Under the pieces are notes generated by a model. The model saw only the letters and a list, made by a program, of their open reading frames with translations, made no database searches and had not been told where the DNA came from. A stretch of DNA of 64,000 nucleotides from an uncultured bacterium (lineage in GTDB: Bacteria; Hydrothermota; UBA3073; NMUJ01; CBEVQO01). Within the stretch, counting starts at the first letter, position 1, and each line of letters opens with the position of its first letter. Shown piece by piece: positions 5,347 to 60,660 of the stretch. The stretch covers positions 128,001 to 192,000 of the forward strand of contig CBEVQO010000004.1 of NCBI GenBank assembly GCA_965552055.1. Direction: 5' to 3'. The translations under genes were made by a program, and so were the position numbers.

Positions 5347-5373
5347 TTGACAAATTCACATTTTTATTAAATT
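5347..5373 (+). promoter_or_regulatory. Promoter TTGACA-N15-TAAATT, 5 nt before GTG (leaderless-like)
   Basis: Read directly; same geometry as other promoters in the window. Confidence 0.7.
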
Positions 5374-5378
5374 ATTTG

Positions 5379-6722
5379 GTGAGCCATTTCATCCCAATAA
5401 CTCCCGAAGAAAAAAAAGAGATGCTTAAAAAAATCGGTGTTAAAAATTTCGAAGAATTGATAAATACTATTATTCCTGAAGAAATAAGATTAAAGGGAGA
5501 ACTCGATTTACCGGAAAGTTTATCGGAACTTGAAGTAAAAAGAGAGGTGGAAAAAATTGCCAATTTAAATGTTTCGACGGATTCTTTTATAAATTTCATG
5601 GGTGCAGGTGCTTATGACCATTTCATTCCATCTGCTGTTTTTCACATAATAAGCAGACCTGAATTTTACACCGCTTATACTCCCTATCAGGCAGAAGCAT
5701 CTCAGGGCACATTACAGGCGCTTTACGAATATCAATCCATGATTTGTGAATTGATGGAAATGGATGTTGCCAATTCTTCAATGTATGATGGTGGAACTGC
5801 TATTGCTGAAGCATGTCGCATGGCACTCGCAATTAAAAAAGGAGAAAAGGTACTCGTAGCAGGCACCCTTCATCCTTATTATTTGCGATGCATAAAAACA
5901 TATCTTTCTGAAGAAAAAGTTTTAATATGTCCGGAAAAAGGTGGTCAGATAGATATTGAGAAATTAGATGAATTAATGAAAGATGCATGTGCTTTTGTTT
6001 GTCAGAGTCCGAATTTTTATGGCGTTCTTGAAGAAGTATTTGATATAAGCGAAATTGTTCACAAAAATGGAGGTTTATTAATTGCTGTTCCTTTGCCCAT
6101 TTCTCTTGGTTTACTTTCACCTCCCGGTGAATATGATGCGGATATTGTGGCATGTGAGGGTCAAACACTTGGTTTACCGTTGAATTTTGGTGGTCCTTAT
6201 CTTGGCATTTTATGTGCCAGACGCGAATTCATAAGATACATGCCGGGTAGAATTATTGGAAGGACAGTGGATAAGGATGGCAAAGATGCTTTTTGTATGG
6301 TATTACAGACAAGGGAGCAACATATAAGGCGTGCACGAGCAACATCCAACATCTGCACAAATCAAACGCTTTGTGCAATAGCATCTGCTGTTTATCTTGC
6401 ACTTATGGGTAAGGAAGGTTTGCGTGAAGTCGCAGAACTATGCATGCAAAAAGCCCATTATCTTGCAGAAAAAATAGAAGAAATAGAAGGATTTAATTTG
6501 AAATATAAAAAGCCATTTTTTAATGAATTTGTGGTTGAAACACCTTTACCTGCTTTGGAAATTTGTGAGAAATTGAAAGATAAGAAGATATTCGCCGGAG
6601 TGCCTTTGAGTAAATTTTATCCGGAAAGAGAAAAAGAATTGTTGATAGCGGTTACCGAGAAGCGCACTAAGTGTGAGCTCGATAATTTTGTTGAACTTTT
6701 GAATACTTTTAAAGTGGCTTGA
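5379..6722 (+). CDS. gcvPA: Glycine dehydrogenase (decarboxylating) subunit 1
   Basis: GAGAYDH, YTAYTPYQAEASQG, NSSMYDG, REQHIRRARATSNICTNQ. Confidence 0.95.
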   Translation: MSHFIPITPEEKKEMLKKIGVKNFEELINTIIPEEIRLKGELDLPESLSELEVKREVEKIANLNVSTDSFINFMGAGAYDHFIPSAVFHIISRPEFYTAYTPYQAEASQGTLQALYEYQSMICELMEMDVANSSMYDGGTAIAEACRMALAIKKGEKVLVAGTLHPYYLRCIKTYLSEEKVLICPEKGGQIDIEKLDELMKDACAFVCQSPNFYGVLEEVFDISEIVHKNGGLLIAVPLPISLGLLSPPGEYDADIVACEGQTLGLPLNFGGPYLGILCARREFIRYMPGRIIGRTVDKDGKDAFCMVLQTREQHIRRARATSNICTNQTLCAIASAVYLALMGKEGLREVAELCMQKAHYLAEKIEEIEGFNLKYKKPFFNEFVVETPLPALEICEKLKDKKIFAGVPLSKFYPEREKELLIAVTEKRTKCELDNFVELLNTFKVA

Positions 6723-6745
6723 CAAATCTATGGTATGATTAATAT
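6719..6745 (+). promoter_or_regulatory. Promoter TTGACA-N15-TAATAT
   Basis: Overlaps the gcvPA stop; followed by a G-rich SD and ATG 6761. Confidence 0.65.
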
Positions 6746-6760
6746 TATTGGGGGGAGAAA

Positions 6761-7354
6761 ATGCCTGAGACGAAGATTGAGAAAAAGAAGCTCGAAGAGA
6801 CGATAAGAAAAGCGGTGAAAGAAATTCTTCTGGAGACATTAATAGAAGAGGATGCATTCAGGAAATTTGAGTTAAGCACGGCAGGAAGAGTGATAAGAAT
6901 AGAAGAGAAGCTGGATAAATTTGTGACCAAAGAAGAGTTTCAGAAAGCGATAGGTGAATTGAACAAAAGAATAGATGTGAAGACAGCGGAGACCAATAAA
7001 AGGATAGATGAGAAGACGGCGGAGACCAATAAAAGGATAGATGAGAAGATAGCTGAAGTTAATAAAAGGATAGATGAGAAGACGGCGGAGACCAATAAAA
7101 GGATAGATGAGAAGATAGCTGAAGTTAATAAAAGGATAGATGAGAAGACGGCGGAGACCAACAGGAGGATAGATGAGAAGATAGCTGAAGTTAACAAGAG
7201 GATAGATGAAAAGACGGCGGAGACTAACAAGAGGCTAGATGAGAAGATAGCTGAAGTTAACAGGAGGATTGACAAATTATTGTGGCTACTAGTTGGGGCA
7301 TTATTAGGAATAATTGGCACTCTAATAACCGCAATTTTTAACTTATTAAGATAG
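6761..7354 (+). CDS. Membrane-anchored coiled-coil repeat protein (DUF1640/CCDC90- or Bdr-like)
   Basis: VTKEEF neck motif, nine 11-residue repeats, C-terminal hydrophobic helix. Confidence 0.7.
   Translation: MPETKIEKKKLEETIRKAVKEILLETLIEEDAFRKFELSTAGRVIRIEEKLDKFVTKEEFQKAIGELNKRIDVKTAETNKRIDEKTAETNKRIDEKIAEVNKRIDEKTAETNKRIDEKIAEVNKRIDEKTAETNRRIDEKIAEVNKRIDEKTAETNKRLDEKIAEVNRRIDKLLWLLVGALLGIIGTLITAIFNLLR
6968..7273 (+). repeat. 33-bp coding tandem repeat, 9 units of two mostly alternating types
   Basis: RIDEKTAETNK and RIDEKIAEVNK units with near-identical DNA. Confidence 0.95.
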
Positions 7355-7358
7355 AGGA

Positions 7359-8111: not shown

Positions 8112-9219
8112 AAAATTTTATCAATCTTTTTATTAGCAAATCTTTTTCGAAAAATTTTTCTCTTTCCCTTAATTTATCTTTGATTTTCCCTTTATCAAAT
8201 TTGTCCCAATTTTCCAATATCCGGATTAATTCTTCTGTTTTATCATAGTAAATGCCGGCATCTTTTAAAATTTCTCTATGTATTTTTGTATCTTTTGCGA
8301 TTACAGGTAGTCCTGCCTTTATGTAATTTATTACTTTTCCATCTGCTTCGCATTCCGATTTCTTAGGTGCAAGCGCTACATCGCCTATACTTAAATATCT
8401 ATGAGCTTCAAAATAATCTATCTTCCCTGTGAAAATAACATTTTTTAAATCTTTTGCTCTCTCTTTGTATTTATCCTCTGGATAGCCCATTATTACAAAT
8501 TTCCATTTTTTTAATTTCTCTGCTGCTTCAAGAATTGCTGGCACTCCCTGATAATCGGTTAAAATTCCAAGATATACCGCGATTTTGTCTTTTTCGGATA
8601 AATTCAATTTTTTCATAATTTCTTTATTCTTTGAAGTTTTAAATCTTTCGGGTGCAAAATCCCATATTGTTTCTACATTTTTTAGCCCTTTACTTTTCAA
8701 ATATTGAGTAAAGATTTCGGAAGATGTAGTTATACCTGTCATTAATTTTAATAATCTAATCTCGAATATGTCAACTATTTTTTTGAGTAATTTTAAGAAT
8801 TTCCAGCCATGTTGTATTACTTCACACGCAAATTTGCCCTGAAAATCACAAATCACAGGTATTTTCTTCATAATTTTTATGGGCAATGTTATAAATGCTC
8901 CTTCAAGTAAAAAAGCGTGTATCAAATTGGGCTTAAATTTACAGACTTCTTTAAATGTTTTTAAAATCATCAAAAAATCAAGGAAGAATTTTAGAAAATG
9001 TGGACCTGGTTCTGTTTTTTTAAAGGGCAAAATAGGAGGTATTCTCACGATGTCGAGACCTTTTAAATTTTCTCCTTCAGGATAAGTTAAGATTTTTATT
9101 ATAAAATTTCTTTCTTTTAAAGCGTTTGCTATTTCATAAATTCTTATGTGACAACCTCTATGTGCGAAGAAAGGTGTGGGTGCCACTATCAATATTTTAA
9201 AGTATTTCTTCTGTGACAT
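8095..9219 (-). CDS. Glycosyltransferase family 4
   Basis: PTPFFAHRGCHIRI, YLGILTDYQG, KVINYIKAGLPVIA. Confidence 0.85.
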   Translation of the reverse strand: MSQKKYFKILIVAPTPFFAHRGCHIRIYEIANALKERNFIIKILTYPEGENLKGLDIVRIPPILPFKKTEPGPHFLKFFLDFLMILKTFKEVCKFKPNLIHAFLLEGAFITLPIKIMKKIPVICDFQGKFACEVIQHGWKFLKLLKKIVDIFEIRLLKLMTGITTSSEIFTQYLKSKGLKNVETIWDFAPERFKTSKNKEIMKKLNLSEKDKIAVYLGILTDYQGVPAILEAAEKLKKWKFVIMGYPEDKYKERAKDLKNVIFTGKIDYFEAHRYLSIGDVALAPKKSECEADGKVINYIKAGLPVIAKDTKIHREILKDAGIYYDKTEELIRILENWDKFDKGKIKDKLREREKFFEKDLLIKRLIKFYERFV

Positions 9220-13767: not shown

Positions 13768-14283
13768 TTACATTGGTTCTACAAGGAAAAGTTCCTGTCC
13801 ATATTCTACCGGTTGTTCGTTTTCTACCAGTATTTTTACGATTTTGCCTTTTACACCGGCAGGTATTTCGTTAAATACTTTCATTGCCTCGATTATACAT
13901 ACGATTGTATCTTCTTTTACTATGTCACCTACCTCTACATAGGGTTTTGCACCTGGTGCTGGTGCTCTGTAAAATGTTCCCACCATAGGAGAGCGTATTG
14001 CTACAAGTTCTTTTGCTTCTTTTTTCTCTTCTTTAACTTCTTTTACTTCGGGTTTTTCTTCTTTAATTTCTTCTTTGATTTCTTCTTTCTTTTCGACTTT
14101 TACAGGTTGGGCTTGCACCTGTGGTATTTGCTGTATCTGTGGCGTTATGATTTGAGGTATCGGTGTGCTTTCTTTCTTTTTACTAACTCTTATAGTTCTG
14201 AACCATGTTTTTATTTCGATTTCATCCACATCGCTTTTGCTCAATATTTCTGTTAATTTTTTTATTAATTCATCTAACTTCAT
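13768..14283 (-). CDS. accB: Biotin carboxyl carrier protein
   Basis: [15 protein letters not shown] biotinylation motif. Confidence 0.95.
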
Positions 14284-14582
14284 TCTGGTTTGAATCCTAT
14301 TATTTTTTTCTCGTGTGTTTCCTCTATTTTAATTTCTCCGAATCTTTCTTCGTATTTTTTGATATTTTCTTCGAGTGTTTTCAACAATCTTTTTGCGTGT
14401 GCCGGTGCCAGTATTATTCTTGCGTATATTTTTGTTTTTTTGAGTCCTGGCATTATTCTTGTGAAATCGATTACGAATTCCGTTGGTGAGTGGCTTACGA
14501 TTGCAAAGTTTGAGTATATTCCTTCGCCTTCTTTTTCCGGCACTTCAATTTGTATTTCTTGCATTTGCGGTCTTTCTTCCAT
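14280..14582 (-). CDS. DUF3467 family protein
   Basis: [20 protein letters not shown]...[20 protein letters not shown] before ATG 14582. Confidence 0.85.
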
Positions 14583-15018
14583 TTTTAACTCCTTTTTTCT
14601 TATTGAAAAGTTTATCGAAAGTGTCAATTATGAATTTGGCAGATTTAAAACCTTCTTTTATTACATTAACACTTTTACCCCCTCTGTAATATCCAAGTAT
14701 ATGGAGAACTTCATAAGCTGTATTAAAATGTGCTTTTAATTTGCCGTTATGCGGTATTTTGTTGAGCCATTGCATATATTCTCTGTAATCCGCCGGTAAT
14801 TCCTCTGGCTTTTTCCCCTTTTTTAAGATGTATGCATCTATTGCGAGAAGGACTGCGAGATATCCGATGGCACATGCCTCTGATACCCTTTTGCTATCGG
14901 CATATCTTATACCATATTCAATTGGTGTCTCCTTTAAAATATCCTTTGCATTTTTGAAATATCTTTTTGCTTCTCTTATTGCTTCTTCAGGACTTTTAGG
15001 TCTTTCTCTTTTTTCCAT
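14545..15018 (-). CDS. DUF5618/HEPN-like helical protein, copy F
   Basis: [13 protein letters not shown]...[23 protein letters not shown]...LHILGYYRGG; SD AGGAG. Family name is from motif recall. Confidence 0.7.
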   Translation of the reverse strand: MEKRERPKSPEEAIREAKRYFKNAKDILKETPIEYGIRYADSKRVSEACAIGYLAVLLAIDAYILKKGKKPEELPADYREYMQWLNKIPHNGKLKAHFNTAYEVLHILGYYRGGKSVNVIKEGFKSAKFIIDTFDKLFNKKKGVKNGRKTANARNTN

Positions 15019-15451
15019 ATTCTTTCTCCTTTTCATTAAAAAGTTTGTCAAATGTGTCAATAATTATTTTTGCTGCTTTGAAACCTGCTTTTATGATATC
15101 GACACTCGTTCCTCCTCTATAATATCCCAGGATGTGTAAACTTTCATAAACCGTATTAAGATGTGCTTTTAATTTGCCGTTATGCGGGATTTTGTTGAGC
15201 CATTGCATATATTCTCTGTAATCCGCCGGTAATTCCTCTGGCTTTTTCCCCTTTTTTAAGATGTATGCATCTATTGCGAGAAGGACTGCGAGATATCCGA
15301 TGGCACATGCCTCTGATACCCTTTTGCTATCGGCATATCTTATACCATATTCAATTGGTGTCTCCTTTAAAATATCCTTTGCATTTTTGAAATATCTTTT
15401 TGCTTCTCTTATTGCTTCTTCAGGACTTTTAGGTCTTTCTCTTTTTTCCAT
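14996..15451 (-). CDS. DUF5618/HEPN-like protein, copy E
   Basis: Same N-terminal part as F; variable segment HLNTVYESLHILGYYRGGTSVDIIKAG. Confidence 0.7.
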   Translation of the reverse strand: MEKRERPKSPEEAIREAKRYFKNAKDILKETPIEYGIRYADSKRVSEACAIGYLAVLLAIDAYILKKGKKPEELPADYREYMQWLNKIPHNGKLKAHLNTVYESLHILGYYRGGTSVDIIKAGFKAAKIIIDTFDKLFNEKEKEYGKKRKT

Positions 15452-15884
15452 ATTCTTTCTCCTTTTCATTAAAAAGTTTGTCAAATGTATCAATAATTAT
15501 TTTTGCTGCTTTGAAACCTGATTTTATGATATCGACACTCGTTCCTCCTCTGTAATATCCCAGGATGTGTAAACTTTCATAAACCGTATTAAAATGTGCT
15601 TTTAATTTGCCGTTATGCGGTATTTTGTTGAGCCATTGCATATATTCTCTGTAATCCGCCGGTAATTCCTCTGGCTTTTTCCCCTTTTTTAAGATGTATG
15701 CATCTATTGCGAGAAGGACTGCGAGATATCCGATGGCACATGCCTCTGATACCCTTTTGCTATCGGCATATCTTATACCATATTCAATTGGTGTCTCCTT
15801 TAAAATATCCTTTGCATTTTTGAAATATCTTTTTGCTTCTCTTATTGCTTCTTCAGGACTTTTAGGTCTTTCTCTTTTTTCCAT
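15429..15884 (-). CDS. DUF5618/HEPN-like protein, copy D
   Basis: Variable segment HFNTVYESLHILGYYRGGTSVDIIKSG. Confidence 0.7.
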   Translation of the reverse strand: MEKRERPKSPEEAIREAKRYFKNAKDILKETPIEYGIRYADSKRVSEACAIGYLAVLLAIDAYILKKGKKPEELPADYREYMQWLNKIPHNGKLKAHFNTVYESLHILGYYRGGTSVDIIKSGFKAAKIIIDTFDKLFNEKEKEYGKKRKT

Positions 15885-16317
15885 ATTCTTTCTCCTTTTC
15901 ATTAAAAAGTTTGTCAAATGTATCAATAATTACCTTTACTGCTTTGAAGCCCCCTTTTATCATATCAACATTTGTCCCGCCTCTGTAATATCCGAGGATA
16001 TGCAGGTTCTCGTAAGCCGTGTTTAAGCACGCTTTTAGTTTGCCATTGTGCGGAATTTTACCAATTTCTTTCATGTATTCCGAAAATTTTGTTGGCAAAT
16101 CTCCTGTTTCTTTACCTTTTTTAAGCAGATAAGCATCTATTGCCAGAAGTGCTGCAAGATAACCGATAGCACAAGCTTCTGATACCTTTTTGCTGTCAAT
16201 ATATCTTTCGTATTCAACGGGTATTTCTTTTAAAATATTTTTGGCGTTTTTAAAGTATCTTTTGGCTTCAGAGATTGCTTCTTCAGGACTTTTGGGTCTT
16301 TCTCTTATTTTTTCCAC
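15862..16317 (-). CDS. DUF5618/HEPN-like protein, copy C (divergent 5' part)
   Basis: GTG start with SD AGGAGG; N-terminal part diverged; 3' part matches copy A. Confidence 0.7.
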   Translation of the reverse strand: MEKIRERPKSPEEAISEAKRYFKNAKNILKEIPVEYERYIDSKKVSEACAIGYLAALLAIDAYLLKKGKETGDLPTKFSEYMKEIGKIPHNGKLKACLNTAYENLHILGYYRGGTNVDMIKGGFKAVKVIIDTFDKLFNEKEKEYGKKRKT

Positions 16318-16753
16318 TGCTTGCCTCCTTTTTCTTATTGAAAAGTTTATCGAAGGTGTCAATTATGAATTTGGCAGATTTAAAACCTTCTTTTATCATC
16401 TGGACACCCCTTCCGCCTCTATAATATCCGAATACATGTAAATTTTCATAGGCTGTATTAAAATGTGCTTTTAATTTGCCGTTATGCGGTATTTTGTTGA
16501 GCCATTGCATATATTCTCTGTAATCCGCCGGTAATTCCTCTGGCTTTTTCCCCTTTTTTAAGATGTATGCATCTATTGCGAGAAGGACTGCGAGATATCC
16601 GATGGCACATGCCTCTGATACCCTTTTGCTATCGGCATATCTTATACCATATTCAATTGGTGTCTCCTTTAAAATATCCTTTGCATTTTTGAAATATCTT
16701 TTTGCTTCTCTTATTGCTTCTTCAGGACTTTTAGGTCTTTCTCTTTTTTCCAT
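16283..16753 (-). CDS. DUF5618/HEPN-like protein, copy B
   Basis: Variable segment [27 protein letters not shown]. Confidence 0.7.
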   Translation of the reverse strand: MEKRERPKSPEEAIREAKRYFKNAKDILKETPIEYGIRYADSKRVSEACAIGYLAVLLAIDAYILKKGKKPEELPADYREYMQWLNKIPHNGKLKAHFNTAYENLHVFGYYRGGRGVQMIKEGFKSAKFIIDTFDKLFNKKKEASSGKNKRKTQKS

Positions 16754-17183
16754 ATTCTTTCTCCTTTTCATTAAAAAGTTTGTCAAATGTATCAATAATT
16801 ACCTTTACTGCTTTGAAGCCCCCTTTTATCATATCAACATTTGTCCCGCCTCTGTAATATCCGAACACATGCAGGTTTTCATAAGCCGTATTAAAATAAG
16901 CCTTTAATTTGCCGTTATGCGGGATTTTGTTGAGCCATTGCATATATTCTCTGTAATCCGCCGGTAATTCCTCTGGCTTTTTCCCCTTTTTTAAGATGTA
17001 TGCATCTATTGCGAGAAGGACTGCGAGATATCCGATGGCACATGCCTCTGATACCCTTTTGCTATCGGCATATCTTATACCATATTCAATTGGTGTCTCC
17101 TTTAAAATATCTTTTGCATTTTTGAAATATCTTTTTGCTTCTCTTATTGCATCTTCAGGACTTTTGGGTCTTTCTCTTATCAT
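16731..17183 (-). CDS. DUF5618/HEPN-like protein, copy A
   Basis: ATGA overlap with the upstream gene; variable segment [27 protein letters not shown]. Confidence 0.7.
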
Positions 17184-17674
17184 CCCTGTTTATAACCTAT
17201 TTTTCTCAAAAATTCTTTTCGGCATTTTATGTCTTCTTCTTTTTCAAAGCCAAGAGGTGAGAATCCATCCACCACACCGAGCACACCTCTACCCTGTTCT
17301 GTTTCAGCGATTATCACTTCACATGGGTTTGCAGTGGCACAGAATATCCTGCATACCTCCTGCACATTCTTTATTCGGTTCAAAACATTAATCGGATAAG
17401 CATTTTTTAAAAATATGATAAATATGTGACCCGCCCCTATGTTCATTGCATTTTTCTTAGCAAGTTCAATCATCTCTTCATCGTTACCTGTGTATCTTAT
17501 GAGACGGGGACCGGATGACTCACAAAAAGCCAGACCAAACTTTATCCCGGGAAAAGAAGTTATAAGAGCTTCATAAAGGTCTTCCACTGTTTTTATGAAA
17601 TGAGACTGTCCCAAAATAAAATTCACTTCTTCGGGCTTTTCTATTTTTACTTTTAAAATTCTAACATCTGCCAT
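17180..17674 (-). CDS. Adenosine-specific kinase family protein (DUF355)
   Basis: [43 protein letters not shown]. Confidence 0.9.
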
Positions 17675-17679
17675 CAATA

Positions 17680-17706
17680 AATATAAGCAAAATCCGAAAT
17701 TGTCAA
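17680..17706 (-). promoter_or_regulatory. Promoter TTGACA-N15-TATATT, 5 nt before ATG 17674
   Basis: Read on the reverse strand. Confidence 0.7.
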
Positions 17707-17730
17707 TAGTAAATTTTTGCAATAAAATGA

Positions 17731-17757
17731 TTGACAAAATGAAATATCGAATATAAT
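17731..17757 (+). promoter_or_regulatory. Promoter TTGACA-N15-TATAAT, 6 nt before the pdxJ ATG
   Basis: Both hexamers are perfect consensus; no SD. Confidence 0.8.
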
Positions 17758-17763
17758 AATAAA

Positions 17764-18471
17764 ATGAGATTATCAGTAAACATTGACCATATTGCTACCC
17801 TTAGAGAGGCGCGTAAAATACATTATCCTGACCCTGTTCATGCGGTCCATCTTATAGAAATAGCAGGAGCTCATGGTATTACCTGTCATTTAAGAATTGA
17901 TAGAAGACATATAAAGGAAAGGGATATCAAATTATTGAAGGAAATATCTTCTTTGCCATTAAATGTGGAGGTATCACTTACAGATGAGTTATTGCGCTTT
18001 TTATGTGATGTTCGTCCTGACTGGTGCTGTCTTGTTCCTGAGCGTCCAGAAGAAATAACAACAGAGGGTGGGCTCGATATTATAAAATTTTTCGAGGAAA
18101 CAAAGAGAGCGGTTGATATTTTAAAATCATCGGATATAAAAGTAACAATTTTCATTGAGCCAGATAAAAAGATTATTGAGAAAGCCAGATTAACGGGTGC
18201 AGATGCGGTTGAGATAAATACCGGTAAATATTCGGAAAGCAAAGGAGAAGCTGCTATTCGTGAATATAAGCGCATAAAGGAAGCAGCGAAGTTTGCAAAA
18301 GAAATGGGTTTCGAGGTGCACGGCGGTCATGGCTTGAATTATCAGAATGTGAAATTAATAGCACAAATATCCGAAATTGAAGAGCTGAGTATAGGGCATA
18401 GTATAATATCTCGCGCCGTATTCGTCGGACTTGAGCGTGCAGTAAGGGAAATGCTCTTGCTCATTTCATGA
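17764..18471 (+). CDS. pdxJ: Pyridoxine 5'-phosphate synthase
   Basis: [44 protein letters not shown]. Confidence 0.96.
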
Positions 18472-20030
18472 AGAAATTAATTCCCCTTTTAATAATATCT
18501 TTAATTTTAGGATGTAAAAAGAAAGGAAAATTTCAGGAAATAACCGAAGATTTATCCGGCTTTAAAGTGTTTGTTCTCGGTGAAGACTTCCTTCATGTTT
18601 ATAACATTAATGACTTTAATGATGTTGTTACTTATAAACTTAACAGAAAATATGCGGGACTATATAAGGATGACAGTATTTATCTTTACGGTGAGGATTT
18701 AAGAATAATTCGTCCTTCTGGAATAAAACGCTTTACCAGGTTGAAAACAGGGTATAAGGGATTACTCTTCATAAAGAGAAAACCCATTTTACTTTTTGAT
18801 AACTATTTGTTAAATGAGGTGCTTGATGCTTTTATTCCTTTGCGTTATGGTGAAAAAGTAATACCTGACCCTTCTGAAGATTATTTATATGTTCTTGATA
18901 CAGCCTGTGTAAGGAAAATCGAGGTTGATTCCTTTAAAGTGATGGGTGAGATAAGGCATAAGAATTTAGCAGATATTGCTCTATCTCCTTTTGGTCTTCG
19001 TCTATATTGTGCGCATCTTGATACATTTCTGGTTTATGATGCAAGGAGTTTAAGATTTTTATATTCCATCGTATTGGACGATAACATCAATAAAATAGAA
19101 TTAACAGGTGCAGGGAATAAGATATATTGTGTGTGTGGTAAAAAGATTTTTGTAATAGATAGAATAATGAAAAGGATAAAGCGGGTTTTGAAATTTTCGC
19201 AAAAAGTTATTGATTTTAGATTATCGGATGAAGGAATAATAGGAATAGCTTTAACTCCATCCTATGTTTATTTCATTGATGCTGGGTTTGATAAAATTAT
19301 TAAAAAGTTAAATTTAAGTGAGATTTTATCTTTTGATATGTCTCCAAAGGGCACAAGATGCTATTTTGTTCGTCCTGATACTCTGGTTGAGATTCGTCTT
19401 CCTGATTTTAAGATTTCTAAGAAATTGTATTTACCTGGGGTTAAAGGAGTTTGTGTTAAGAAATATGAGTCGGTTTCGAGTCAAATTGAAGTTGCGAAGG
19501 AAGCAGGAGAAAAGTTTTATGTTTTGCAGGTTGTTTCTACGCATAGTTTATCTCGTGCAAGGGAATTGAAGAATTTACTGCTGAAAGCAGGCTATCCTGC
19601 GTTTATAAGCCAAAGTGAAGGCTGGTATAGAGTAAGGATAGGTCTTTTTACGACAAAGGAAGATGCAGAGGCTCTGTGTAACGGTGTGGAGATGCTTACA
19701 GGTGAGCGCCCATGGGTTGCACTCGCAGAAGTACCGCGAGATATAGTTCCAGATGTGAATACACCTGATATTACTGGTGATGGTGCACCTGAATTTTGTG
19801 TGCGTGCAAATAATACCGAAATTATAATTTTCACTATAAGAGATAAAGTTTTCGTAAGAGTTCATACTATAAAGAAATTTGAACCGACATATATAGGTGA
19901 GCCCACATTTGAGGATATAAATAATGATGGAAGATACGAAATTGTAATCCCTATGGTTGAAGAGGGAATGTATTCTGTTATTTTCTACAGGGAAGGTGAA
20001 TTTGAGGAAGAGATAAGAGTCAGGGAATGA
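18468..20030 (+). CDS. Lipoprotein with beta-propeller-like region and SPOR domain
   Basis: Lipobox LILGC; SPOR motif YVLQVVS...A..L...L...GYPA...WYRVRIGLF...A. Confidence 0.7.
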   Translation: MKKLIPLLIISLILGCKKKGKFQEITEDLSGFKVFVLGEDFLHVYNINDFNDVVTYKLNRKYAGLYKDDSIYLYGEDLRIIRPSGIKRFTRLKTGYKGLLFIKRKPILLFDNYLLNEVLDAFIPLRYGEKVIPDPSEDYLYVLDTACVRKIEVDSFKVMGEIRHKNLADIALSPFGLRLYCAHLDTFLVYDARSLRFLYSIVLDDNINKIELTGAGNKIYCVCGKKIFVIDRIMKRIKRVLKFSQKVIDFRLSDEGIIGIALTPSYVYFIDAGFDKIIKKLNLSEILSFDMSPKGTRCYFVRPDTLVEIRLPDFKISKKLYLPGVKGVCVKKYESVSSQIEVAKEAGEKFYVLQVVSTHSLSRARELKNLLLKAGYPAFISQSEGWYRVRIGLFTTKEDAEALCNGVEMLTGERPWVALAEVPRDIVPDVNTPDITGDGAPEFCVRANNTEIIIFTIRDKVFVRVHTIKKFEPTYIGEPTFEDINNDGRYEIVIPMVEEGMYSVIFYREGEFEEEIRVRE

Positions 20031-21286
20031 ATTTCAAAGAGGCTGTAGATTTTCTTTATTCTTTGATAAATTATGAAAGAACGGGTAAAAAAACAGAATG
20101 GAATCTCGAAGATTTTCGTGCATTCCTTGAGAAAATAGGTTCTCCACATGAGAAAGTAAAAAATCCGATTCTTGTTGCAGGTACAAAAGGAAAAGGTTCC
20201 GTTGTTGCTTTTTTATCTTCGATTTTATCTCAGAAGTATAAAGTGGGTTCCTATTATTCTCCGCATCTTGTTTCTATCCGCGAGAGGATAAAATATCAGG
20301 GTGTGGATATTTCGGAAAAAGATTTTTGTAAGTTAGTGGATAAAATAAAACCTTATGTTACCGAAAAAAGGACATTTTTTGAAGCTTTAACAGCTATTGC
20401 ATTTCTATATTTTGTTGATAAAAAAACGGATTACAATGTTATCGAAGTGGGACTCGGAGGTCGTCTTGATGCCACAAATGTTGTAAACAATAAATATTCT
20501 ATATTGACGAGAATAGGTTTTGACCATACAAGGACACTTGGAACAAATCTGGTCTCTATTGCGAAAGAGAAAGTAGCGATTCTAAAGCCCAATGGCATTT
20601 TAATATGTGAGCCACAGGCCGGTATCGTCAAAGGAGTTATTAGAAGTGCCTGTACAAAGTTAAATTGTGAGGCAATTTTTGTATCAAAAACAGAAGCTGG
20701 CATTCTCGATTTGAATGAAAAAGGGGCGAAATTTAGATACAGGGGATATGAGTTTGAAATTAAGATGACCGGGCTTCATCAAATTGTAAATGCACTCACT
20801 GCGATAAAATGTGCAGAGGCGATAGGCATTTCTTATCAGGATATACAAAAGGGTTTAAAGGAAGCTTTTATTCCGGGCAGATTTCAGGTTTTGAAAGTAA
20901 GGAAGAAGAAAGTGATTCTCGATGGTGCTCATAACGAAGATAGTTTTAAAGCACTTACTCAAACCTTGCAGGAGCTTTATGGCAGTAAGCCGAAAATTTA
21001 TTGTGTATTTGCGATAATGAAGGACAAAGATTTACACAGAATTTTGCGTCTCTATGGTAAAACTTTTTATAAAGTTTATGCTACAGAATTGGATTGTCCG
21101 CGTGCACGCAAATCATCCGAAATATGTGAAGAATTCCAGCAAATAAATGTAGAATGCGAGGCTATAGATAATCCAATAGAGGCTTTTGAAAGAGCACTTA
21201 AAGAAGCAAGCAGGGAAGATATCGTGCTTGTAACGGGTTCTTTTTATCTCATTGGCGAGGTCTTAAAATACATTCAAAATGTATGA
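20027..21286 (+). CDS. folC: Folylpolyglutamate synthase/dihydrofolate synthase
   Basis: VAGTKGKGS, SPHL, EVGLGGRLDATN, LDGAHN, GSFYLIGE. Confidence 0.93.
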   Translation: MNFKEAVDFLYSLINYERTGKKTEWNLEDFRAFLEKIGSPHEKVKNPILVAGTKGKGSVVAFLSSILSQKYKVGSYYSPHLVSIRERIKYQGVDISEKDFCKLVDKIKPYVTEKRTFFEALTAIAFLYFVDKKTDYNVIEVGLGGRLDATNVVNNKYSILTRIGFDHTRTLGTNLVSIAKEKVAILKPNGILICEPQAGIVKGVIRSACTKLNCEAIFVSKTEAGILDLNEKGAKFRYRGYEFEIKMTGLHQIVNALTAIKCAEAIGISYQDIQKGLKEAFIPGRFQVLKVRKKKVILDGAHNEDSFKALTQTLQELYGSKPKIYCVFAIMKDKDLHRILRLYGKTFYKVYATELDCPRARKSSEICEEFQQINVECEAIDNPIEAFERALKEASREDIVLVTGSFYLIGEVLKYIQNV

Positions 21287-25991: not shown

Positions 25992-25996
25992 CTTCA

Positions 25997-26023
25997 ATTT
26001 TAATGAAAAAAATTTTTTGTCAA
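25997..26023 (-). promoter_or_regulatory. Promoter TTGACA-N15-TAAAAT, 5 nt before ATG 25991
   Basis: Read on the reverse strand. Confidence 0.7.
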
Positions 26024-26066
26024 CAAATTCTTGACAATACAGGAAATCGATATAAATATTAGAATT

Positions 26067-31435: not shown

Positions 31436-31440
31436 CTATT

Positions 31441-31467
31441 AATATAATCATTTTGCGGATAAGTCAA
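31441..31467 (-). promoter_or_regulatory. Promoter TTGACT-N15-TATATT, 5 nt before ATG 31435
   Basis: Read on the reverse strand. Confidence 0.7.
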
Positions 31468-31476: not shown

Positions 31477-31503
31477 TTGACAAATTTATATTTTGTCGAA
31501 ATT
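31477..31503 (+). promoter_or_regulatory. Promoter TTGACA-N15-GAAATT, 5 nt before GTG 31509
   Basis: Same geometry, weaker -10. Confidence 0.5.
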
Positions 31504-33797: not shown

Positions 33798-34876
33798 AAA
33801 TATTGATAATAGGACCAACCCCTCCGCCATACTTTGGAACAGCTGTGGCGACACAAAAGATATTACAAAATGAAAAATTAAATAAAAAATTCGATTTATT
33901 GCATCTTGATACATCGGATAGAAGGGGAGTCGAGAATATAGGGAGATGGGATTTGCAAAACATTAAACTTGCCATTTTTCACATTTTAAAATTATTTCTG
34001 TTGCTTCTGAAGAAAAAAGTAAATCTTACATACATCCCGATTGCCCAAAATGTACCCGGTTTTTTGCGAGACGGGATTTTTATTCTTATAAGCAAGCTTT
34101 TTGGCAAAAAAGTAGTTTGTCATCTCAGGGGAAGTTATTTCAGGGATTTTTATGAGAGAACAAATTCCATTATGCGATTTTATATAAAGTTCTGTCTGAA
34201 AAAAGTCGATAGAATGATAGTATTGTGCGAAAGGTTGAAGAAAATTTTTAGTGGTCTCATAGATGATAAGAAAATATCCGTGGTGCCGAATGGTTTACCC
34301 GTTAGGGAATTAATAAGGAGAAAAGGTGAGCATTTTTTATATTTAAGTAATCTTTCTGCAGGTAAGGGGGTATTCTTTGCATTGAATGGCTTAAAAATTC
34401 TGGATAAAGATTTGCACTTTAAGTTTATATTCGCAGGCAACTGGCGTAACTCATATGATAAGAAGAGGGCGATTGAGATTATAAAAAGTTTTAAAAAAAT
34501 CGATGTGCAACTGGTTGGTGCAGTGAAGGGCGAAGAAAAATCGGAATTGATGTCGAAATCCATAGCTCTTATTTTTACTCCTGTTCATAAAGAAGGTATG
34601 CCATGGGTGATAATAGAGGCACTCTCCTATGGTTTACCCATTATTTCGACAGATAGAGGGTGTATCCCAGATATGGTAAAGGATGGTGAAAATGGTTTTA
34701 TAGTGAAGGATGAGAAAGATCTGGCAGAAAAGATAAAGATATTGCTGGAGAATGAAGAATTAAGGGAAAAAATGTGCAGGAAATCGCGAGAGATTTTTTT
34801 AAATTATTACAATGAGGATAAAAGTATGGAGAAGTTTATCGAAGTTTTTCACTTGACTTTTTCATCAAAAGGATAA
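33782..34876 (+). CDS. Glycosyltransferase family 4
   Basis: GPTPPPYFG, EGMPWVIIEALSYGLPII, GENGF. Confidence 0.88.
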   Translation: MREKIKILIIGPTPPPYFGTAVATQKILQNEKLNKKFDLLHLDTSDRRGVENIGRWDLQNIKLAIFHILKLFLLLLKKKVNLTYIPIAQNVPGFLRDGIFILISKLFGKKVVCHLRGSYFRDFYERTNSIMRFYIKFCLKKVDRMIVLCERLKKIFSGLIDDKKISVVPNGLPVRELIRRKGEHFLYLSNLSAGKGVFFALNGLKILDKDLHFKFIFAGNWRNSYDKKRAIEIIKSFKKIDVQLVGAVKGEEKSELMSKSIALIFTPVHKEGMPWVIIEALSYGLPIISTDRGCIPDMVKDGENGFIVKDEKDLAEKIKILLENEELREKMCRKSREIFLNYYNEDKSMEKFIEVFHLTFSSKG

Positions 34877-34879
34877 AAT
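34853..34879 (+). promoter_or_regulatory. Promoter TTGACT-N15-TAAAAT, 6 nt before GTG 34886
   Basis: Read directly. Confidence 0.7.
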
Positions 34880-34885
34880 AATATA

Positions 34886-35635
34886 GTGAAAGTGGCACTG
34901 ATTAGTGATTTTCATGGCAAGGAAGAATATCTGGAGAAATTTATTAATGCTATAAAGTCAGAGAGTCTTGATTTTATCATATTTTGTGGTGATGTGGTTA
35001 AGGGTTTTGTCAGGGGTGACGAGTGGCTCAGTGCCCGTTCAGATGGCAGGTGTCCTGATAAGAATAAAAAAGAAATATGGGATTCTTTTTCGGAAGATAA
35101 ATATTTTTATGATAAATTTTTCGGTGAATTAGACAAACTTGGTTTGCAGGTACTTGTGGTGCATGGAAACATGGATGCTCCTGTTAAATATTTTGAAGAA
35201 GCAGTTGATAAATATCCCAACATTTATAATTTGCATTGTGCTGTTTATGGTTGGAAAGATTGGGTATTTTTTGGATTCGGGGGAGAGATTACCGAGTCGG
35301 AATACGAAGATTTTTTCGTCAATGTGTATCCGAGAAAGATGATAGAGAAAGCTTTTTTGAAGATGAAAGATGTTAGATTAAAAAAAATATTCGTTACGCA
35401 TACTCCTCCTGTATCAAGAGCAGGTACAGAACCTCAGGGGTATAAAGGATGCGAGATTATAAATGAGATTATTCTGAACTATAAACCTGTTTTTCATTTC
35501 TGTGGTCATGCTCATAAAGCCCGTGGACAGGATAAAATAGGAGAAACAGTTGTGGTGAACCCTGGACCCCTGAAATACGGATATTATGCGATTTGCGATG
35601 TTGAAAAGAAGGAGGTAAAATTTTTGACTCTTTAA
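34886..35635 (+). CDS. Metallophosphoesterase (calcineurin-like)
   Basis: SDFHG, GD, GNMD, HTPP, GHAH, NPG. Confidence 0.88.
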   Translation: MKVALISDFHGKEEYLEKFINAIKSESLDFIIFCGDVVKGFVRGDEWLSARSDGRCPDKNKKEIWDSFSEDKYFYDKFFGELDKLGLQVLVVHGNMDAPVKYFEEAVDKYPNIYNLHCAVYGWKDWVFFGFGGEITESEYEDFFVNVYPRKMIEKAFLKMKDVRLKKIFVTHTPPVSRAGTEPQGYKGCEIINEIILNYKPVFHFCGHAHKARGQDKIGETVVVNPGPLKYGYYAICDVEKKEVKFLTL

Positions 35636-35651
35636 ACACATTTGCTAAAAT
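35624..35651 (+). promoter_or_regulatory. Promoter TTGACT-N16-TAAAAT
   Basis: 4 nt before TTG 35656. Confidence 0.5.
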
Positions 35652-35655
35652 ATTA

Positions 35656-35850
35656 TTGCTTTTTGGTATCTTTTTGATTTTTACTTCTGGTATTCTATTT
35701 TTGCTTGGTAAAACAGGTGTTAACTTTCCGCGTTTACCGGGTGATATTTACATAAAGCGTGAAAATTTTGTTTTTTATTTTCCCATTGTTAGTTGTGTTA
35801 TTTTGTCTTTACTTTTGACTCTTATTTTAAATCTTTTGTGCAGGAGATGA
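35656..35850 (+). CDS. DUF2905 family small membrane protein
   Basis: RLPGDIYIKRENFVFYFPIVSC. Confidence 0.85.
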   Translation: MLFGIFLIFTSGILFLLGKTGVNFPRLPGDIYIKRENFVFYFPIVSCVILSLLLTLILNLLCRR

Positions 35851-43570: not shown

Positions 43571-43647
43571 AACCACCTCCTTAATTATCTTTATTCATTT
43601 TCTGGAAAAGTCAAGTAAAATTTTTTAAATTTTTATCAAATTTTATC

Positions 43648-44825: not shown

Positions 44826-44853
44826 ATTATACTTAAAATTTTAAATTTGTCAA
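44826..44853 (-). promoter_or_regulatory. Promoter TTGACA-N16-TATAAT, 5 nt before ATG 44820
   Basis: Read on the reverse strand. Confidence 0.7.
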
Positions 44854-44865
44854 CACTTTTTTATC

Positions 44866-44892
44866 TTGACAATTTTAATTTTCATTTAAAAT
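44866..44892 (+). promoter_or_regulatory. Promoter TTGACA-N15-TAAAAT, 5 nt before ATG 44898
   Basis: Read directly; no SD. Confidence 0.75.
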
Positions 44893-44897
44893 AAATT

Positions 44898-45851
44898 ATG
44901 AAAATCTCTATTCCAAAGGGCTTACTTTACTATAAATATTTCCCGATGTGGAAAGTATTTTTTGAAGAACTTGGATTTGATGTGATGACATCAAGGGATA
45001 CATCCAAGAAGATTATGGAAAGCGGACTTAAAATAGCGAACGATGAATTATGTTTGCCTGTAAAGATATTTCACGGTCATGTTGCAGATGTTAAAGATAA
45101 ATCGGATTATATTTTTATTCCAAGGATTATAAATATGCGAAAAGGAAAAAATTTTTTCACATGTCCCAAGCTGATGGGCTTACCCGATATGATAAAGGGA
45201 TGTTTTGATGATATTTCTCACAGATTGCTTGAGCCCGATATAAATTTGGCAAAAGAACCGCTTGAAAAAACTTTTATAAAACTGGGGAAGAAATTGGGGG
45301 AAAAAGAAAAAGCAAAGAAAGCGATTAAGAGGGCAATGAAAGCACAAAAAGATTTCGAAAAATTACTGGAAAAGGGATACATGTTCGAAGAAGCGCTCAA
45401 TATTTTATTCAAAGGAGAAAAAGTTAAAAGAAGGGAAAGAAGATTTAAAAAGAGGGTAGGTATAATCGGGCATTCTTATATTGTGTTTGATAAATTTTTG
45501 AATTTAAATTTATTTGAAAAACTTGAGAAACTCGAAGTCGATTACATTACAATGTATAATTTGCCTTTTTCTTTTCTTGATTTTGAGGATGATTATTGGA
45601 ATGTTGCATGGATTTACGAAAGAGAAATCATAGGAGCTGTGAAATATTTTATTGAAAAAGAGAAAGTTGATGGTATTATTTATCTTTTAAGTTTTGGTTG
45701 TGGCACAGCGATAGTCGTTCGTGAGATTATAATGAGGGATGTTATAAAGGGCGCAAATATACCTTTTTTGCCGCTTATACTCGATGAGCATACAGGAGAG
45801 GCAGGTTTTATGACGCGTCTGGAATCTTTTTGTGATATACTCAAAAAATGA
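44898..45851 (+). CDS. Acyl-CoA dehydratase activase-related protein (DUF2229-like)
   Basis: CLPVKIFHGHV, CPKLMGLPDM, FGCG, DEHTGEAGFMTRLE. Confidence 0.8.
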   Translation: MKISIPKGLLYYKYFPMWKVFFEELGFDVMTSRDTSKKIMESGLKIANDELCLPVKIFHGHVADVKDKSDYIFIPRIINMRKGKNFFTCPKLMGLPDMIKGCFDDISHRLLEPDINLAKEPLEKTFIKLGKKLGEKEKAKKAIKRAMKAQKDFEKLLEKGYMFEEALNILFKGEKVKRRERRFKKRVGIIGHSYIVFDKFLNLNLFEKLEKLEVDYITMYNLPFSFLDFEDDYWNVAWIYEREIIGAVKYFIEKEKVDGIIYLLSFGCGTAIVVREIIMRDVIKGANIPFLPLILDEHTGEAGFMTRLESFCDILKK

Positions 45852-56378: not shown

Positions 56379-56405
56379 TTGACAAAAAAACGAGTATATT
56401 AAAAT
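56379..56405 (+). promoter_or_regulatory. Promoter TTGACA-N15-TAAAAT
   Basis: Followed by a poly-G SD and ATG 56419. Confidence 0.7.
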
Positions 56406-58949: not shown

Positions 58950-58976
58950 TTGACTTTTTAATTTTTTGCATAAATT
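58950..58976 (+). promoter_or_regulatory. Promoter TTGACT-N15-TAAATT, 5 nt before ATG 58982
   Basis: Read directly. Confidence 0.7.
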
Positions 58977-58981
58977 AAAAG

Positions 58982-59365
58982 ATGGGGAAAGTGGTGGAGA
59001 AGATAAAATTAAAAAATTTATTTGAGCCAGAGAAATCTGTGGAAGTGGATGCAGTCATAGATACAGGTGCAACAATGTTAGTTTTGCCTCAGGATATAGT
59101 AGAAAAGCTCGGCTTGCAAAAAGTAGATGAGAGAAGAGTGAGATACGCAAATAACCAAATTCAAATAAGACCTATTTACAGGGGCGTAATACTTGAACTA
59201 AAAGGCAGAGAAGGAATATTTGATGTGCTGTGCGAGGTAAAGGTCGCAGAACCACTTGTTGGACAAATAGTATTGGAAACTTTAGACCTAATAGTTGACC
59301 CTATCACAAAAACAGTGAAACCAAATCCAAAATCACCAGATATGCCCACGGCAGAGATACTTTGA
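58982..59365 (+). CDS. Clan AA (retropepsin-like) aspartic protease
   Basis: AVIDTGAT, PLVGQIVLETLDLIVDP. Confidence 0.85.
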   Translation: MGKVVEKIKLKNLFEPEKSVEVDAVIDTGATMLVLPQDIVEKLGLQKVDERRVRYANNQIQIRPIYRGVILELKGREGIFDVLCEVKVAEPLVGQIVLETLDLIVDPITKTVKPNPKSPDMPTAEIL

Positions 59366-59388
59366 AAAGAGTCCAAGGGAGGTGGTTT

Positions 59389-59568
59389 ATGAAAAAGAAG
59401 AAAGAATTTGACGCTGTAAAGATGATGAGAGAGATTCGAGATAAATTGAGCAAAATATACAGTAAAGACCCAGAAGCTGAGGTAAAAGATTCGCAGAAAA
59501 TAAGAGCAAAGTATGGAATCCATGCAAGAAGAAATAAAAAGGTTACTTTTAAAGATATTAAATTTTAA
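59389..59568 (+). CDS. Small basic hypothetical protein
   Basis: SD GGAGG; KKEFDAVKMMREIRDKLS. Confidence 0.6.
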   Translation: MKKKKEFDAVKMMREIRDKLSKIYSKDPEAEVKDSQKIRAKYGIHARRNKKVTFKDIKF

Positions 59569-60637
59569 TTTAGGGAAAAATTTTTGTGGCTTTGACCCCT
59601 ATGATGGTATTTTTTGTGATTTGGGTTGCAAAATTTTGCGTCAAATCTCGCAACAGACAATCAAATTATCACCCATAAATTTCAGGAAAGCACTTTTAAT
59701 AAAAGAAAAAGTACATCCAAAAACTCTTGCGCTATTTTCAATGGGTTTATCAAATCTTTATGAAGTTTTAAAAGAAGAAAAATGTTTGGAACTCGCAGAA
59801 AATTTATTGATAAAATTAAAAGATTTAAAATCAAAGTATTTTCCGGAGTATTGCTGGGGGCATACTTTTGCGTGGCAAACAAGGGAAAAACTTATTCCTG
59901 AAAATTATCCAACTGCCGTAAATACCGCTATCTGTGCATCTGCATTTCTCGATTTTTATAAGCACAAAAGAAAAAAAGATTTTATCGAGATAGCAAAAAG
60001 TGCAGGTGATTTTTTGATGAAAAGGTTAAATATTAAAGAAGATAGATTTTATTTGAGTTATACTCCCATTGATAGAAATTTCGTTCATAATGCAAATTCT
60101 TTATCTGCTGGTTTTTTATGCAAATTGTTTCATTATACAGGAGAGCAGGAATATTTGAATTTTGCAGAAAAAGTGTTTGATACACTTATTTTTTATCAAA
60201 ATTCTGATGGCGGATGGAATTATGGTTTAGCACCTTATCAAAGGTGGATTGATGGCTTTCATACTGGTTTTACGCTGTGGGGTCTAAAATGGGCATTGGA
60301 ATACGGAGGCACTGCGAAATATCAGGAAAATTTATCAAAGGGATATGTTTTCTACAGGGAAAAATTATTTGAGGCTGATTTCCCAAAATATTATTTGCAT
60401 AAGTTTTATCCCACTGATTCTCATAATCTTGCTGTTGCAATCATTATCCTGTGTGAATTTAGGGAGATAAAAACTGCACTTGACATTGCAAGGTGGGTGA
60501 TAGACAACTTTTATTGTTCATCAGGCTATTTTTATTTTCGTGATTATGGCTTTTACAGGATAAAAATACATTATCCGAGATGGAGTGATGCATGGCTTTT
60601 TTATTCTTTTTCTCTGCTTTTAAAAGAAATTATTTGA
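59513..60637 (+). CDS. Putative (alpha/alpha)-barrel protein of polysaccharide loci (paralog of 24334)
   Basis: GFDPYD, WGHTFAWQ, SYTP, HNAN, QNSDGGW, IDGFHTGF, YPRWS. Confidence 0.7.
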   Translation: MESMQEEIKRLLLKILNFNLGKNFCGFDPYDGIFCDLGCKILRQISQQTIKLSPINFRKALLIKEKVHPKTLALFSMGLSNLYEVLKEEKCLELAENLLIKLKDLKSKYFPEYCWGHTFAWQTREKLIPENYPTAVNTAICASAFLDFYKHKRKKDFIEIAKSAGDFLMKRLNIKEDRFYLSYTPIDRNFVHNANSLSAGFLCKLFHYTGEQEYLNFAEKVFDTLIFYQNSDGGWNYGLAPYQRWIDGFHTGFTLWGLKWALEYGGTAKYQENLSKGYVFYREKLFEADFPKYYLHKFYPTDSHNLAVAIIILCEFREIKTALDIARWVIDNFYCSSGYFYFRDYGFYRIKIHYPRWSDAWLFYSFSLLLKEII

Positions 60638-60660
60638 CATTATGAGGATATGAATATATT
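60634..60660 (+). promoter_or_regulatory. Promoter TTGACA-N15-TATATT
   Basis: Upstream of DUF4190-alaS. Confidence 0.7.

Follow-up and report, generated by a model that had tools for sequence, protein, structure and literature searches.

The 17-bp spacer of housekeeping promoters is regarded as a structural constant that holds almost universally, and promoter-prediction models have it built in. Predominantly 17-bp spacers were found in 49 species by a model trained on E. coli (PMC12641261), and 15-bp promoters form only a minor class in E. coli (PMC8695583, PMC9303308). Canonical group 1 sigma70/SigA promoters (TTGACA-17-TATAAT) resemble those of the genome analysed here (G000, from an uncultured bacterium of a hydrothermal vent) in both hexamers, in the A-tract upstream and in having an extended -10 TG, and they too drive rRNA, tRNA and ordinary genes; judged from start codons, a start 5-7 nt past the -10 box would be shared as well. 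They differ in that G000 has its mode at 15 bp and hardly any 17-bp spacers, and its TG is at -16/-15. This 15-bp spacing is genome-wide and occurs at ordinary sigma70-type boxes; we found no description of such a rule in the literature. It is likely that RNA polymerase in this lineage measures promoters differently.

Spacing in the window and across the genome

In the window, that is, the whole 64,000-nt stretch analysed, 13 of 77 TTGACW sites are followed by TANNNT at 15 bp, and each other spacing from 10 to 23 accounts for 0-5 sites. The initial annotation had listed 11 promoters of the form TTGACA/TTGACT-N15-TANNNT, and every one of the 11 was found to have it. At these putative promoters a start codon lies 5 nt past the -10 box at 5347..5373 (+; GTG of a likely leaderless gcvPA), 17680..17706 (-; ATG), 25997..26023 (-; ATG), 31441..31467 (-; TTGACT, ATG), 44866..44892 (+; ATG) and 58950..58976 (+; ATG of a clan AA protease-like gene), and 6 nt past it at 34853..34879 (+; GTG of a phosphoesterase-like gene) and at 17731..17757 (+), the divergent partner of 17680..17706, where a perfect TTGACA-N15-TATAAT precedes the ATG of a likely leaderless pdxJ. 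SD-led genes follow 6719..6745 (+; start at 6761) and 56379..56405 (+; start at 56419), and an SD-like run lies 3' of 60634..60660 (+).

The exceptions named in the same annotation were also as described. The putative promoter at 31477..31503 (+) keeps the 15-bp spacing with an imperfect -10 box, GAAATT, and a GTG 5 nt past it opens a sensor kinase-like gene at 31509; the spacing is 16 bp in the candidate at 35624..35651 (+; TANNNT) and in the putative promoter at 44826..44853 (-; TATAAT), the divergent partner of 44866..44892. TANNNT is absent from 26031..26057 (+), a TTGACA divergent from 25997..26023 with an ATG at 36 nt, and from 43588..43614 (-), where TTGACT-N15-TAAAGA with its imperfect -10 box is followed by an SD-led gene. 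Beyond that list stand one further candidate at 8748..8774 (-; TTGACA-N15-TATTAA, ATG 32 nt from the -35 start) and two N15 matches in coding DNA, one at 28096 (-) and the other at 63036..63062 (+), an internal promoter or a chance match within a long ORF that we take to be alanyl-tRNA-synthetase-like. Rfam gave zero matches in the window. Assembly indels are ruled out as the origin of the 15-bp spacing, since contigs of four other runs, of which the best-matching is possibly the source sample, show no indels over window positions 17000-36000, their gap-free pieces crossing six of the sites. Among the data sets listed as containing this DNA, none was of RNA.

Genome-wide, TANNNT lies 15 bp from 487 of 2607 TTGACW sites, compared with 41-135 at other spacings from 8 to 27, and exact TTGACA/TATAAT pairs number 121 at 15, 27 at 16 and 7 at 17. 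The signal is stronger still between genes, with TANNNT exactly 15 bp downstream of 383 of 785 intergenic TTGACW sites (200 shuffles: mean 41, maximum 64), and the best -10 position falls at 15 in 333, at 16 in 48.5 and at 17 in 20.5. Chance or composition is excluded by the shuffles, by reversed-pattern controls and by the comparison of coding with intergenic DNA. The genome-wide search proposed at the outset therefore returned a mode of 15, not 17, outside the 17 plus or minus 1 bp of group 1 sigma70 promoters. Both rRNA promoters carry the 15-bp spacing, as do 19 of the 25 tRNA genes with a promoter. The description of these promoters as housekeeping thus holds for rRNA and tRNA genes and only partly for the genes of the window (gcvPA, pdxJ and many unannotated), and the spacer that had been called fixed is dominantly 15 bp, a slight overstatement given the ~10-13% of promoters at 16. 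The rule itself was borne out lineage-wide, in the sister family as well as in G000, and the TTGACW-N15-TANNNT sites are very probably working promoters.

Promoter elements and the start of transcription

The -35 enrichment is specific to TTGAC(A/T), TTGC.. giving no peak, which matches the TTGACA consensus. When no -10 box is assumed, the profile past intergenic TTGACW reads T (.73), A (.71), W, A (.63), A (.59) and T (.61) at positions 22-27, the TATAAT consensus with T-12, A-11 and T-7. Anchors made of a start codon and a -10 box alone (gap 5, n=120) have TTGAC at 15 in 82 cases; 10 have it at 16 and 1 at 17. Distances from -35 to ATG peak at 32 (100) and 33 (71), and, judged from sequence only, an in-frame ATG or GTG lies 5, 6 or 7 nt past the box at 129, 54 and 25 of 487 sites; many G000 mRNAs are likely leaderless. 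Because putative leaderless start codons and tRNA 5' ends stand just 32-36 nt from the -35 box, it appears that the entire promoter is ~2 bp shorter and that the -10 box has not been misassigned. Furthermore, 10 of 25 promoter-bearing tRNA genes start no more than 34 nt from the -35 start, so that under a 17+6 geometry (35 nt) transcription would begin inside the tRNA.

It might be supposed that the shortening is only apparent, sigma4 keeping its place and reading the DNA 2 bp further upstream, or the melted element lying further downstream; SigB sets a precedent, its -10 box being recognised upstream in duplex form (PMC11156646). The extended -10 TG is indeed displaced by one base (112 of 383 at -16/-15 compared with 19 of 383 at the canonical -15/-14), which points to rearranged contacts near this element. 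We nevertheless consider this very improbable, as the full TTGACA consensus is kept and the upstream C and A-tract have moved together with it, region 4.2 is conventional, and with start codons at 32-33 nt a melted element further downstream would not fit. The displaced TG was not traced to the RpoD residue that we take to be equivalent to E458: this candidate was rejected because family f3 has Glu yet a displaced TG, and G023 and G029 have Asp yet mixed TG. In family f4 the TG occupies the canonical place.

MerR-type proteins act on long spacers, and in the mirror image of that action an accessory protein could bend the spacer or remodel sigma4 genome-wide, letting a normal holoenzyme use 15 bp. 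Such a protein would account for the lack of indels in the core and sigma contact regions, and a mild A/T phasing pattern in the spacer is compatible with it, but no conserved operator was found in the spacer, and we regard this possibility, too, as very improbable. Nor do the promoters look like those of an alternative sigma with its own consensus and a limited regulon, given standard boxes at ~400 sites including rRNA and tRNA. The profile is without TTTG past the -10 box, which sets it apart from the Bacteroidota -33/-7 elements (TTTG / TANNTTTG).

A single sigma28-like site, at the flagellin gene, reads TAAG-N14-GTCGAAAT, its spacer falling one base short of the N15 usual for sigma28. Further sigma28-like candidates are scattered, and clean sites are too few for a genome-wide test of the sigma28 spacer; the support from sigma28 for a shift borne by the core enzyme is this one flagellin site.

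Sigma factors, core enzyme and topology across the phylum

Among 251 genomes of the phylum (likely WOR-3), a strong 15-bp peak occurs only in G000 and its sister family, and most others prefer 16 or 17. Counts at 15 bp against the control were 487 vs 50 in G000, 133 vs 29 in G001 and 117 vs 25 in G002, the latter two being sister-family genomes. Ten low-count genomes with a high 15-bp ratio (families f28, f19, f30 and f22) mostly showed 16-18 or no mode. In a quick tree of 28 rows, G000 groups with the sister family as a clade (SH-aLRT 95), and the trait is confined to one order in a phylum that as a whole leans to 16 bp: families f17, f24, f42 and f37 have sharp, lineage-wide 16-bp spacing, and f4 is strictly 17-bp. 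A search for closer relatives in genome contigs, metagenome contigs and proteins yielded only distant sigmas and one 100%-identical copy.

G000 encodes two candidate sigmas for these promoters, RpoD and a short RpoD paralogue. The gene of the former comes after dnaG, has a strong SD and encodes a full-length RpoD; it is under purifying selection, 9 of its 11 strain differences being synonymous, and the idea that it is a decaying gene is therefore unsupported. Regions 2-4 of RpoD have evolved faster (FastTree patristic distance 1.22 vs 0.75-1.02), an acceleration that the same distances do not show for the short sigma, RpoB or RpoC of G000, and 20 of 93 conserved RpoD positions have changed. 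The short sigma, of about 265 aa and without region 1.1, lies in a degP-sigma-M23 operon. One could imagine that it became the housekeeping sigma in the ancestor of the order and imposes 15 bp, RpoD having drifted in G000, where the altered conserved positions would be its trace, and having disappeared from the sister family much as it did from Bacteroidota. In the sister family neither RpoD nor any other group 1/2-like sigma was found beside it (3/3 genomes searched). The short sigma keeps its synteny in both families, its region 3.2 linker is shorter and its last C-terminal helix is missing; and in the strict 17-bp family f4 its counterpart looks degenerate, with a long deletion in the linker. 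However, most relatives searched also have the short sigma yet peak at 16 or 17, whereas G023 and G029 show none but prefer 16, which indicates that spacing shifts without it. Moreover, the selection acting on G000 RpoD speaks against drift, and no separate 17-bp promoter class exists for RpoD to read. Replacement of RpoD by the short sigma seems true only of the sister family and not of G000, where an intact RpoD together with almost no 17-bp promoters implies that loss of RpoD was not required for the 15-bp rule. We consider a takeover by the short sigma rather unlikely.

The topology of the DNA, raised as a cause from the beginning, could act if a relaxed or overwound chromosome favoured short spacers and an ordinary polymerase had selected 15-bp promoters. 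Both G000 and G001 encode reverse gyrase, the only type IIA A subunit of G000 has no GyrA-box, whose loss abolishes supercoiling (PMC8216471), relaxation favours 15-nt spacers in E. coli (PMC9303308), and the peak is sharper in G000 (383:57) than in G001 (30:14). Neither feature tracks the trait, however: G001 and G002 retain the GyrA-box yet peak at 15, and reverse gyrase, also present in G026 (17-bp) and G029 (16/17), fails as a predictor of spacing. Spacers in Thermotoga maritima centre on 17 (PMC3636130), which also counts against topology. By our estimate (10.5 bp per turn), fitting the twist of 23 bp into 21 bp would need ~9% overtwist, far above physiological supercoiling, and twist leaves the distance unshortened. 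Topology may sharpen the 15-bp peak, but as its cause it is quite improbable; protein geometry, and not supercoiling, probably sets the spacer length.

An altered polymerase geometry, as first suggested, is the best inference, although the indels that might have explained it did not appear. The RpoB flap has zero indels and RpoD only single-residue ones, and there are none in the beta' zipper or zinc-binding domain, the N-terminal half of beta, the C-terminal half of beta', alpha and omega being outside the comparison. Just seven order-specific substitutions remain in the examined parts of RpoB and RpoC after exclusion of two unreliable end columns. One of these, a zipper Glu-to-Asp, was rejected as the cause, as it does not suffice for 15 and shortening can do without it: the 16-bp families f17 and f24 carry it too, and it did not turn up in other genomes with sharp 16-bp spacing, G203 among them, its spread being judged by a DNA-pattern proxy with six scattered matches, some possibly by chance.

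We therefore favour, at roughly even odds, a holoenzyme whose -35 reader sits ~2 bp nearer its -10 reader, the shift being probably mainly core-borne and the sigmas co-adapted. A change in core geometry would hold sigma4 ~2 bp closer to sigma2, and the sigma4/beta-flap module is the predicted moving part; RpoD would have co-adapted to the shifted core, which would fit its burst of change in regions 2-4. Starting from the common 16-bp preference of the phylum, the order would have moved about one base further. The sigma4/flap-tip module is known to rotate with spacer length (PMC10216364), and a core anchor alters spacer-dependent activity (PMC6411747); against a core shift, sigma domains have been argued to sit at fixed core positions (PMC11156646). 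That the shift is independent of sigma might equally be true or false: two families with different sigma sets share 15, and RpoD in G000 is left with almost no 17-bp promoters. Against a core-borne shift, RpoD might read nothing but the minor class of 16-bp promoters. More tentatively, we speculate that the spacer "ruler" is an evolvable property of the core that has moved among 17, 16 and 15 in this phylum, the core of this order setting 15 for any sigma loaded (RpoD, the short paralogue and, with its shortened spacing, sigma28).

Significance and comparison with described systems

A 15-bp lineage with TTGACA/TATAAT beside sharp 16- and 17-bp relatives offers a natural series on what fixes the sigma4-sigma2 distance, and the retention of RpoD in G000 makes core, RpoD, short sigma and topology separable. 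The spacing may be why such genes are poorly expressed in standard hosts, and 15-bp promoters with their polymerase could provide partly orthogonal expression parts. If the core does set the ruler, this order would have a natural polymerase that is in part orthogonal to standard promoters although the sequences it recognises are unchanged.

A short distance between boxes is shared with SigB, sigma28 and sigma32 promoters, the spacer of S. aureus SigB being about 14 bp (PMC11156646). However, those sigmas read other sequences, whereas G000 keeps the sigma70 consensus; and the short SigB spacer is a question of which bases form the -10 box, while in G000 the stretch between the -35 box and the start appears itself to be shorter. 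In Bacteroidota, a short primary sigma without region 1.1 (sigmaABfr) is the housekeeping factor (PMC6847099). Leaving orthology to sigmaABfr aside, the sister family likewise appears to rely on a short sigma, and the -35-type box of G000 starts near -32/-33; yet Bacteroidota changed the sequences (TTTG/TANNTTTG), whereas the lineage of G000 kept TTGACA/TATAAT and G000 retains RpoD. The 16-bp families f17, f24, f42 and f37 of the same phylum also combine standard boxes with a sharp spacer other than 17, and G035, among the 16-bp lineages, shows the displaced TG too; their 16 bp, one base longer than in this order, still falls within the textbook range of 17 plus or minus 1, and the 15 bp of this order does not.

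A 15-bp spacer and the register of the -10 box

The promoter sites that the initial annotation had listed as sharing a fixed 15-bp spacer were all found in the window as described. TANNNT (the -10 box) lies 15 bp after TTGACW (the -35 box) at 13 of 77 sites there, compared with 0-5 at other spacings, and contigs from four runs contain no indels over 17000-36000 of the window. The genome-wide two-block search proposed in the same annotation upheld this spacing: in the 2.23-Mb genome (G000), 487 of 2607 TTGACW sites have a 15-bp spacer, against 41-135 at other spacings, and exact TTGACA/TATAAT pairs number 121, 27 and 7 at 15, 16 and 17 bp. Among intergenic TTGACW sites, delimited by our own rough gene calls (1867 genes), the count is 383 of 785 (mean 41 and maximum 64 in 200 shuffles), and 328 of the 383 lie no more than 300 nt ahead of a gene start on the same strand. 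What looks like a 17-bp class consists mostly of these 15-bp sites in a register shifted by two bases. Several promoters form divergent pairs with -35 starts only 8-25 bp apart (window 17680-17757, 25997-26057, 31441-31503 and 44826-44892). The window also carries, on the minus strand at 14280-17183, a tandem array of ~7 similar ORFs of 115-171 aa whose start regions are repeated, with near-identical stretches at 15051, 15484, 15917 and 16786.

Three anchors in the sequence say that the register of the -10 box is correct. The base profile after intergenic TTGACW, with no -10 box presumed, has TAWAAT at positions 22-27. The distance from the first T of TTGACW to the start codon peaks at 32 nt (100 cases) and 33 nt (71), and an in-frame ATG/GTG lies 5, 6 or 7 nt past the -10 box at 129, 54 and 25 of the 487 sites, which suggests that many mRNAs are leaderless. 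Such initiation is likely widespread genome-wide, most commonly with a gap of 5 nt (e.g., window 17731-17764 and 44866-44898). When start codon plus -10 box is taken as the anchor, TTGAC lies at 15, 16 and 17 bp in 82, 10 and 1 of 120 cases. Moreover, a -35 box stands 32-45 nt upstream of 25 of the 46 tRNA genes; in 19 of these the spacer is 15 bp, and in 10 the box is at ≤34 nt. A 17-bp spacer with a 6-nt discriminator would put the start 35 nt downstream, that is, inside those 10 genes. Both rRNA-operon promoters have the 15-bp spacer. Most promoter-bearing tRNA genes leave only 0-4 nt for a 5' leader, and many tRNAs may have little or no need for RNase P processing. Finally, an extended -10 TG sits one base upstream of its canonical place (112 vs 19 of 383 intergenic sites), and a second count also favors this displaced -16/-15 position (84 vs 25). 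The displaced TG also occurs in G035 and family f3 (93 vs 23 in G035, 20 vs 3 in G004).

Distribution within the phylum

By its named homologues the genome would belong to candidate division WOR-3, and the best labelled matches to it are hydrothermal-vent metagenomes. Among 251 genomes of the phylum, a strong 15-bp excess over the reversed control was found only in G000 (487 vs 50) and two sister-family genomes, G001 (133 vs 29) and G002 (117 vs 25); a 385-kb sample of G001 gave 30, 14 and 4 at 15, 16 and 17 bp among 101 intergenic sites. In a quick tree of the 28 genomes, out of 41, in which both fragments were present, these three form one clade (SH-aLRT 95); since relatives do not count as independent cases, the 15-bp state is a single event. 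Elsewhere the commonest mode is 16 bp, very sharp in f17, f24 and f42 (e.g., 313:29, 434:32 and 231:8); a 17-bp mode occurs in f4 (e.g., 9:371), f8, f12 and several smaller families, and f3 has a weak 15/16 mixture. G112 (family f30) shows no TTGACA/TATAAT spacer mode (53 vs control 39, spread across 12-20), and its promoters are possibly of a different type. In our search of mostly open-access literature, no bacterium whose housekeeping promoters have a 15-bp mode turned up, nor anything on WOR-3 together with promoter and sigma factor; a per-species spacer figure in PMC12641261, outside its scope, could bear on the former.

Sigma factors and the core enzyme

G000 encodes RpoD, a short paralogue of 265-272 aa, a FliA-like sigma and small sigmas. 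Of the indels for which the initial annotation proposed to look, RpoD has only the loss of one residue from the region 3.0 helix and a sigma finger one residue longer, and our RpoB/RpoC comparison found none in flap, zipper or zinc-binding domain. RpoD is changed at 20 of 93 conserved positions (0-11 in 34 relatives), and conserved residues that differ include the presumed equivalents of T440, V454 and E458. Its regions 2-4 form the longest branch (1.22 vs 0.75-1.02), and the branches of RpoB, RpoC and the short sigma do not stand out. In two f15 genomes (L064, L065), RpoD is also strongly diverged (18 and 27 conserved positions), with 16/17-bp rather than 15-bp promoters.

One explanation is that the short sigma took over as housekeeping sigma and imposed the 15-bp spacing, which we regard as possible though doubtful. 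RpoD was not found in any of three sister-family genomes (99, 87 and 66% complete), where the searches found only the short sigma, syntenic with that of G000's family, and one of ECF size; the short sigma therefore likely reads the 15-bp promoters there. The short sigma is also present in most 16- and 17-bp relatives, and in G000 rpoD is intact, sited after dnaG with a strong SD, and 9 of its 11 strain differences are synonymous. With RpoD maintained, few promoters other than the 15-bp ones would be left for it to read. Since two paralogues only ~36% identical would thus both work at 15 bp, a shared property, the core, is the simplest account. A core polymerase common to both sigmas would carry the 15-bp geometry, an explanation to which we give an even chance; explanations other than these two and DNA topology are, taken together, unlikely. 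In the strict 17-bp family f4 (L162-L170), the short sigma has lost a long stretch of its linker and its melting residues are altered, which suggests that it is decaying. A single flagellin promoter candidate in G000 has a gap of 14 bp, one base short, and flagellar gene clusters with FliA lie at C1:473664-494896, C4:7100-10385 and C8:67543-75472.

Among the order-specific core substitutions are a flap-wall Lys-to-Arg and a Glu-to-Asp in the β' zipper, and a conserved zipper Arg is replaced by Lys in G000 alone. The zipper touches the promoter spacer (PMC3173786, PMC10216364). Of the 251 genomes, 45 show the Asp pattern, with f17 (23/24) and f24 (13/13) among them, and it was not found in the sharp 16-bp genomes G203, G159 and G206; Glu-to-Asp as the cause of shortening is a lead only. 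In the sister family (L104, L100, L216-L218), rpoB and rpoC lie on separate contigs, rpoC not following rpoB, unlike the usual operon.

DNA topology and the canonical promoter

G000 encodes reverse gyrase (C4:82901-86113). The only type IIA A subunit found in it (GyrA/ParC-type, C1:27269-29566, L223) is without a GyrA-box, and the C-terminal domain of this subunit is degenerate. An enzyme of this kind would not supercoil, a state known only in Aquifex aeolicus according to PMC8216471; judged from its genes, G000 is possibly a second bacterium without a negative-supercoiling gyrase. It would be tempting to let topology set the short spacer, as 15-nt spacers are favored on relaxed DNA in Escherichia coli (PMC9303308). 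However, this is improbable: the GyrA-box is retained in G001, G002, G026 and G035, so that the sister family has it yet shows the 15-bp peak, reverse gyrase is shared by relatives whose spacers are 17 or 16 bp (2 of 5 examined), and Thermotoga maritima spacers center on 17 (PMC3636130). Topology may nevertheless sharpen the peak in G000.

We conclude that the 15-bp promoter is a real, sharp and order-specific sigma70 promoter variant. By sequence it would function like the canonical sigma70 promoter, yet it falls outside the 17 ± 1 bp criterion.
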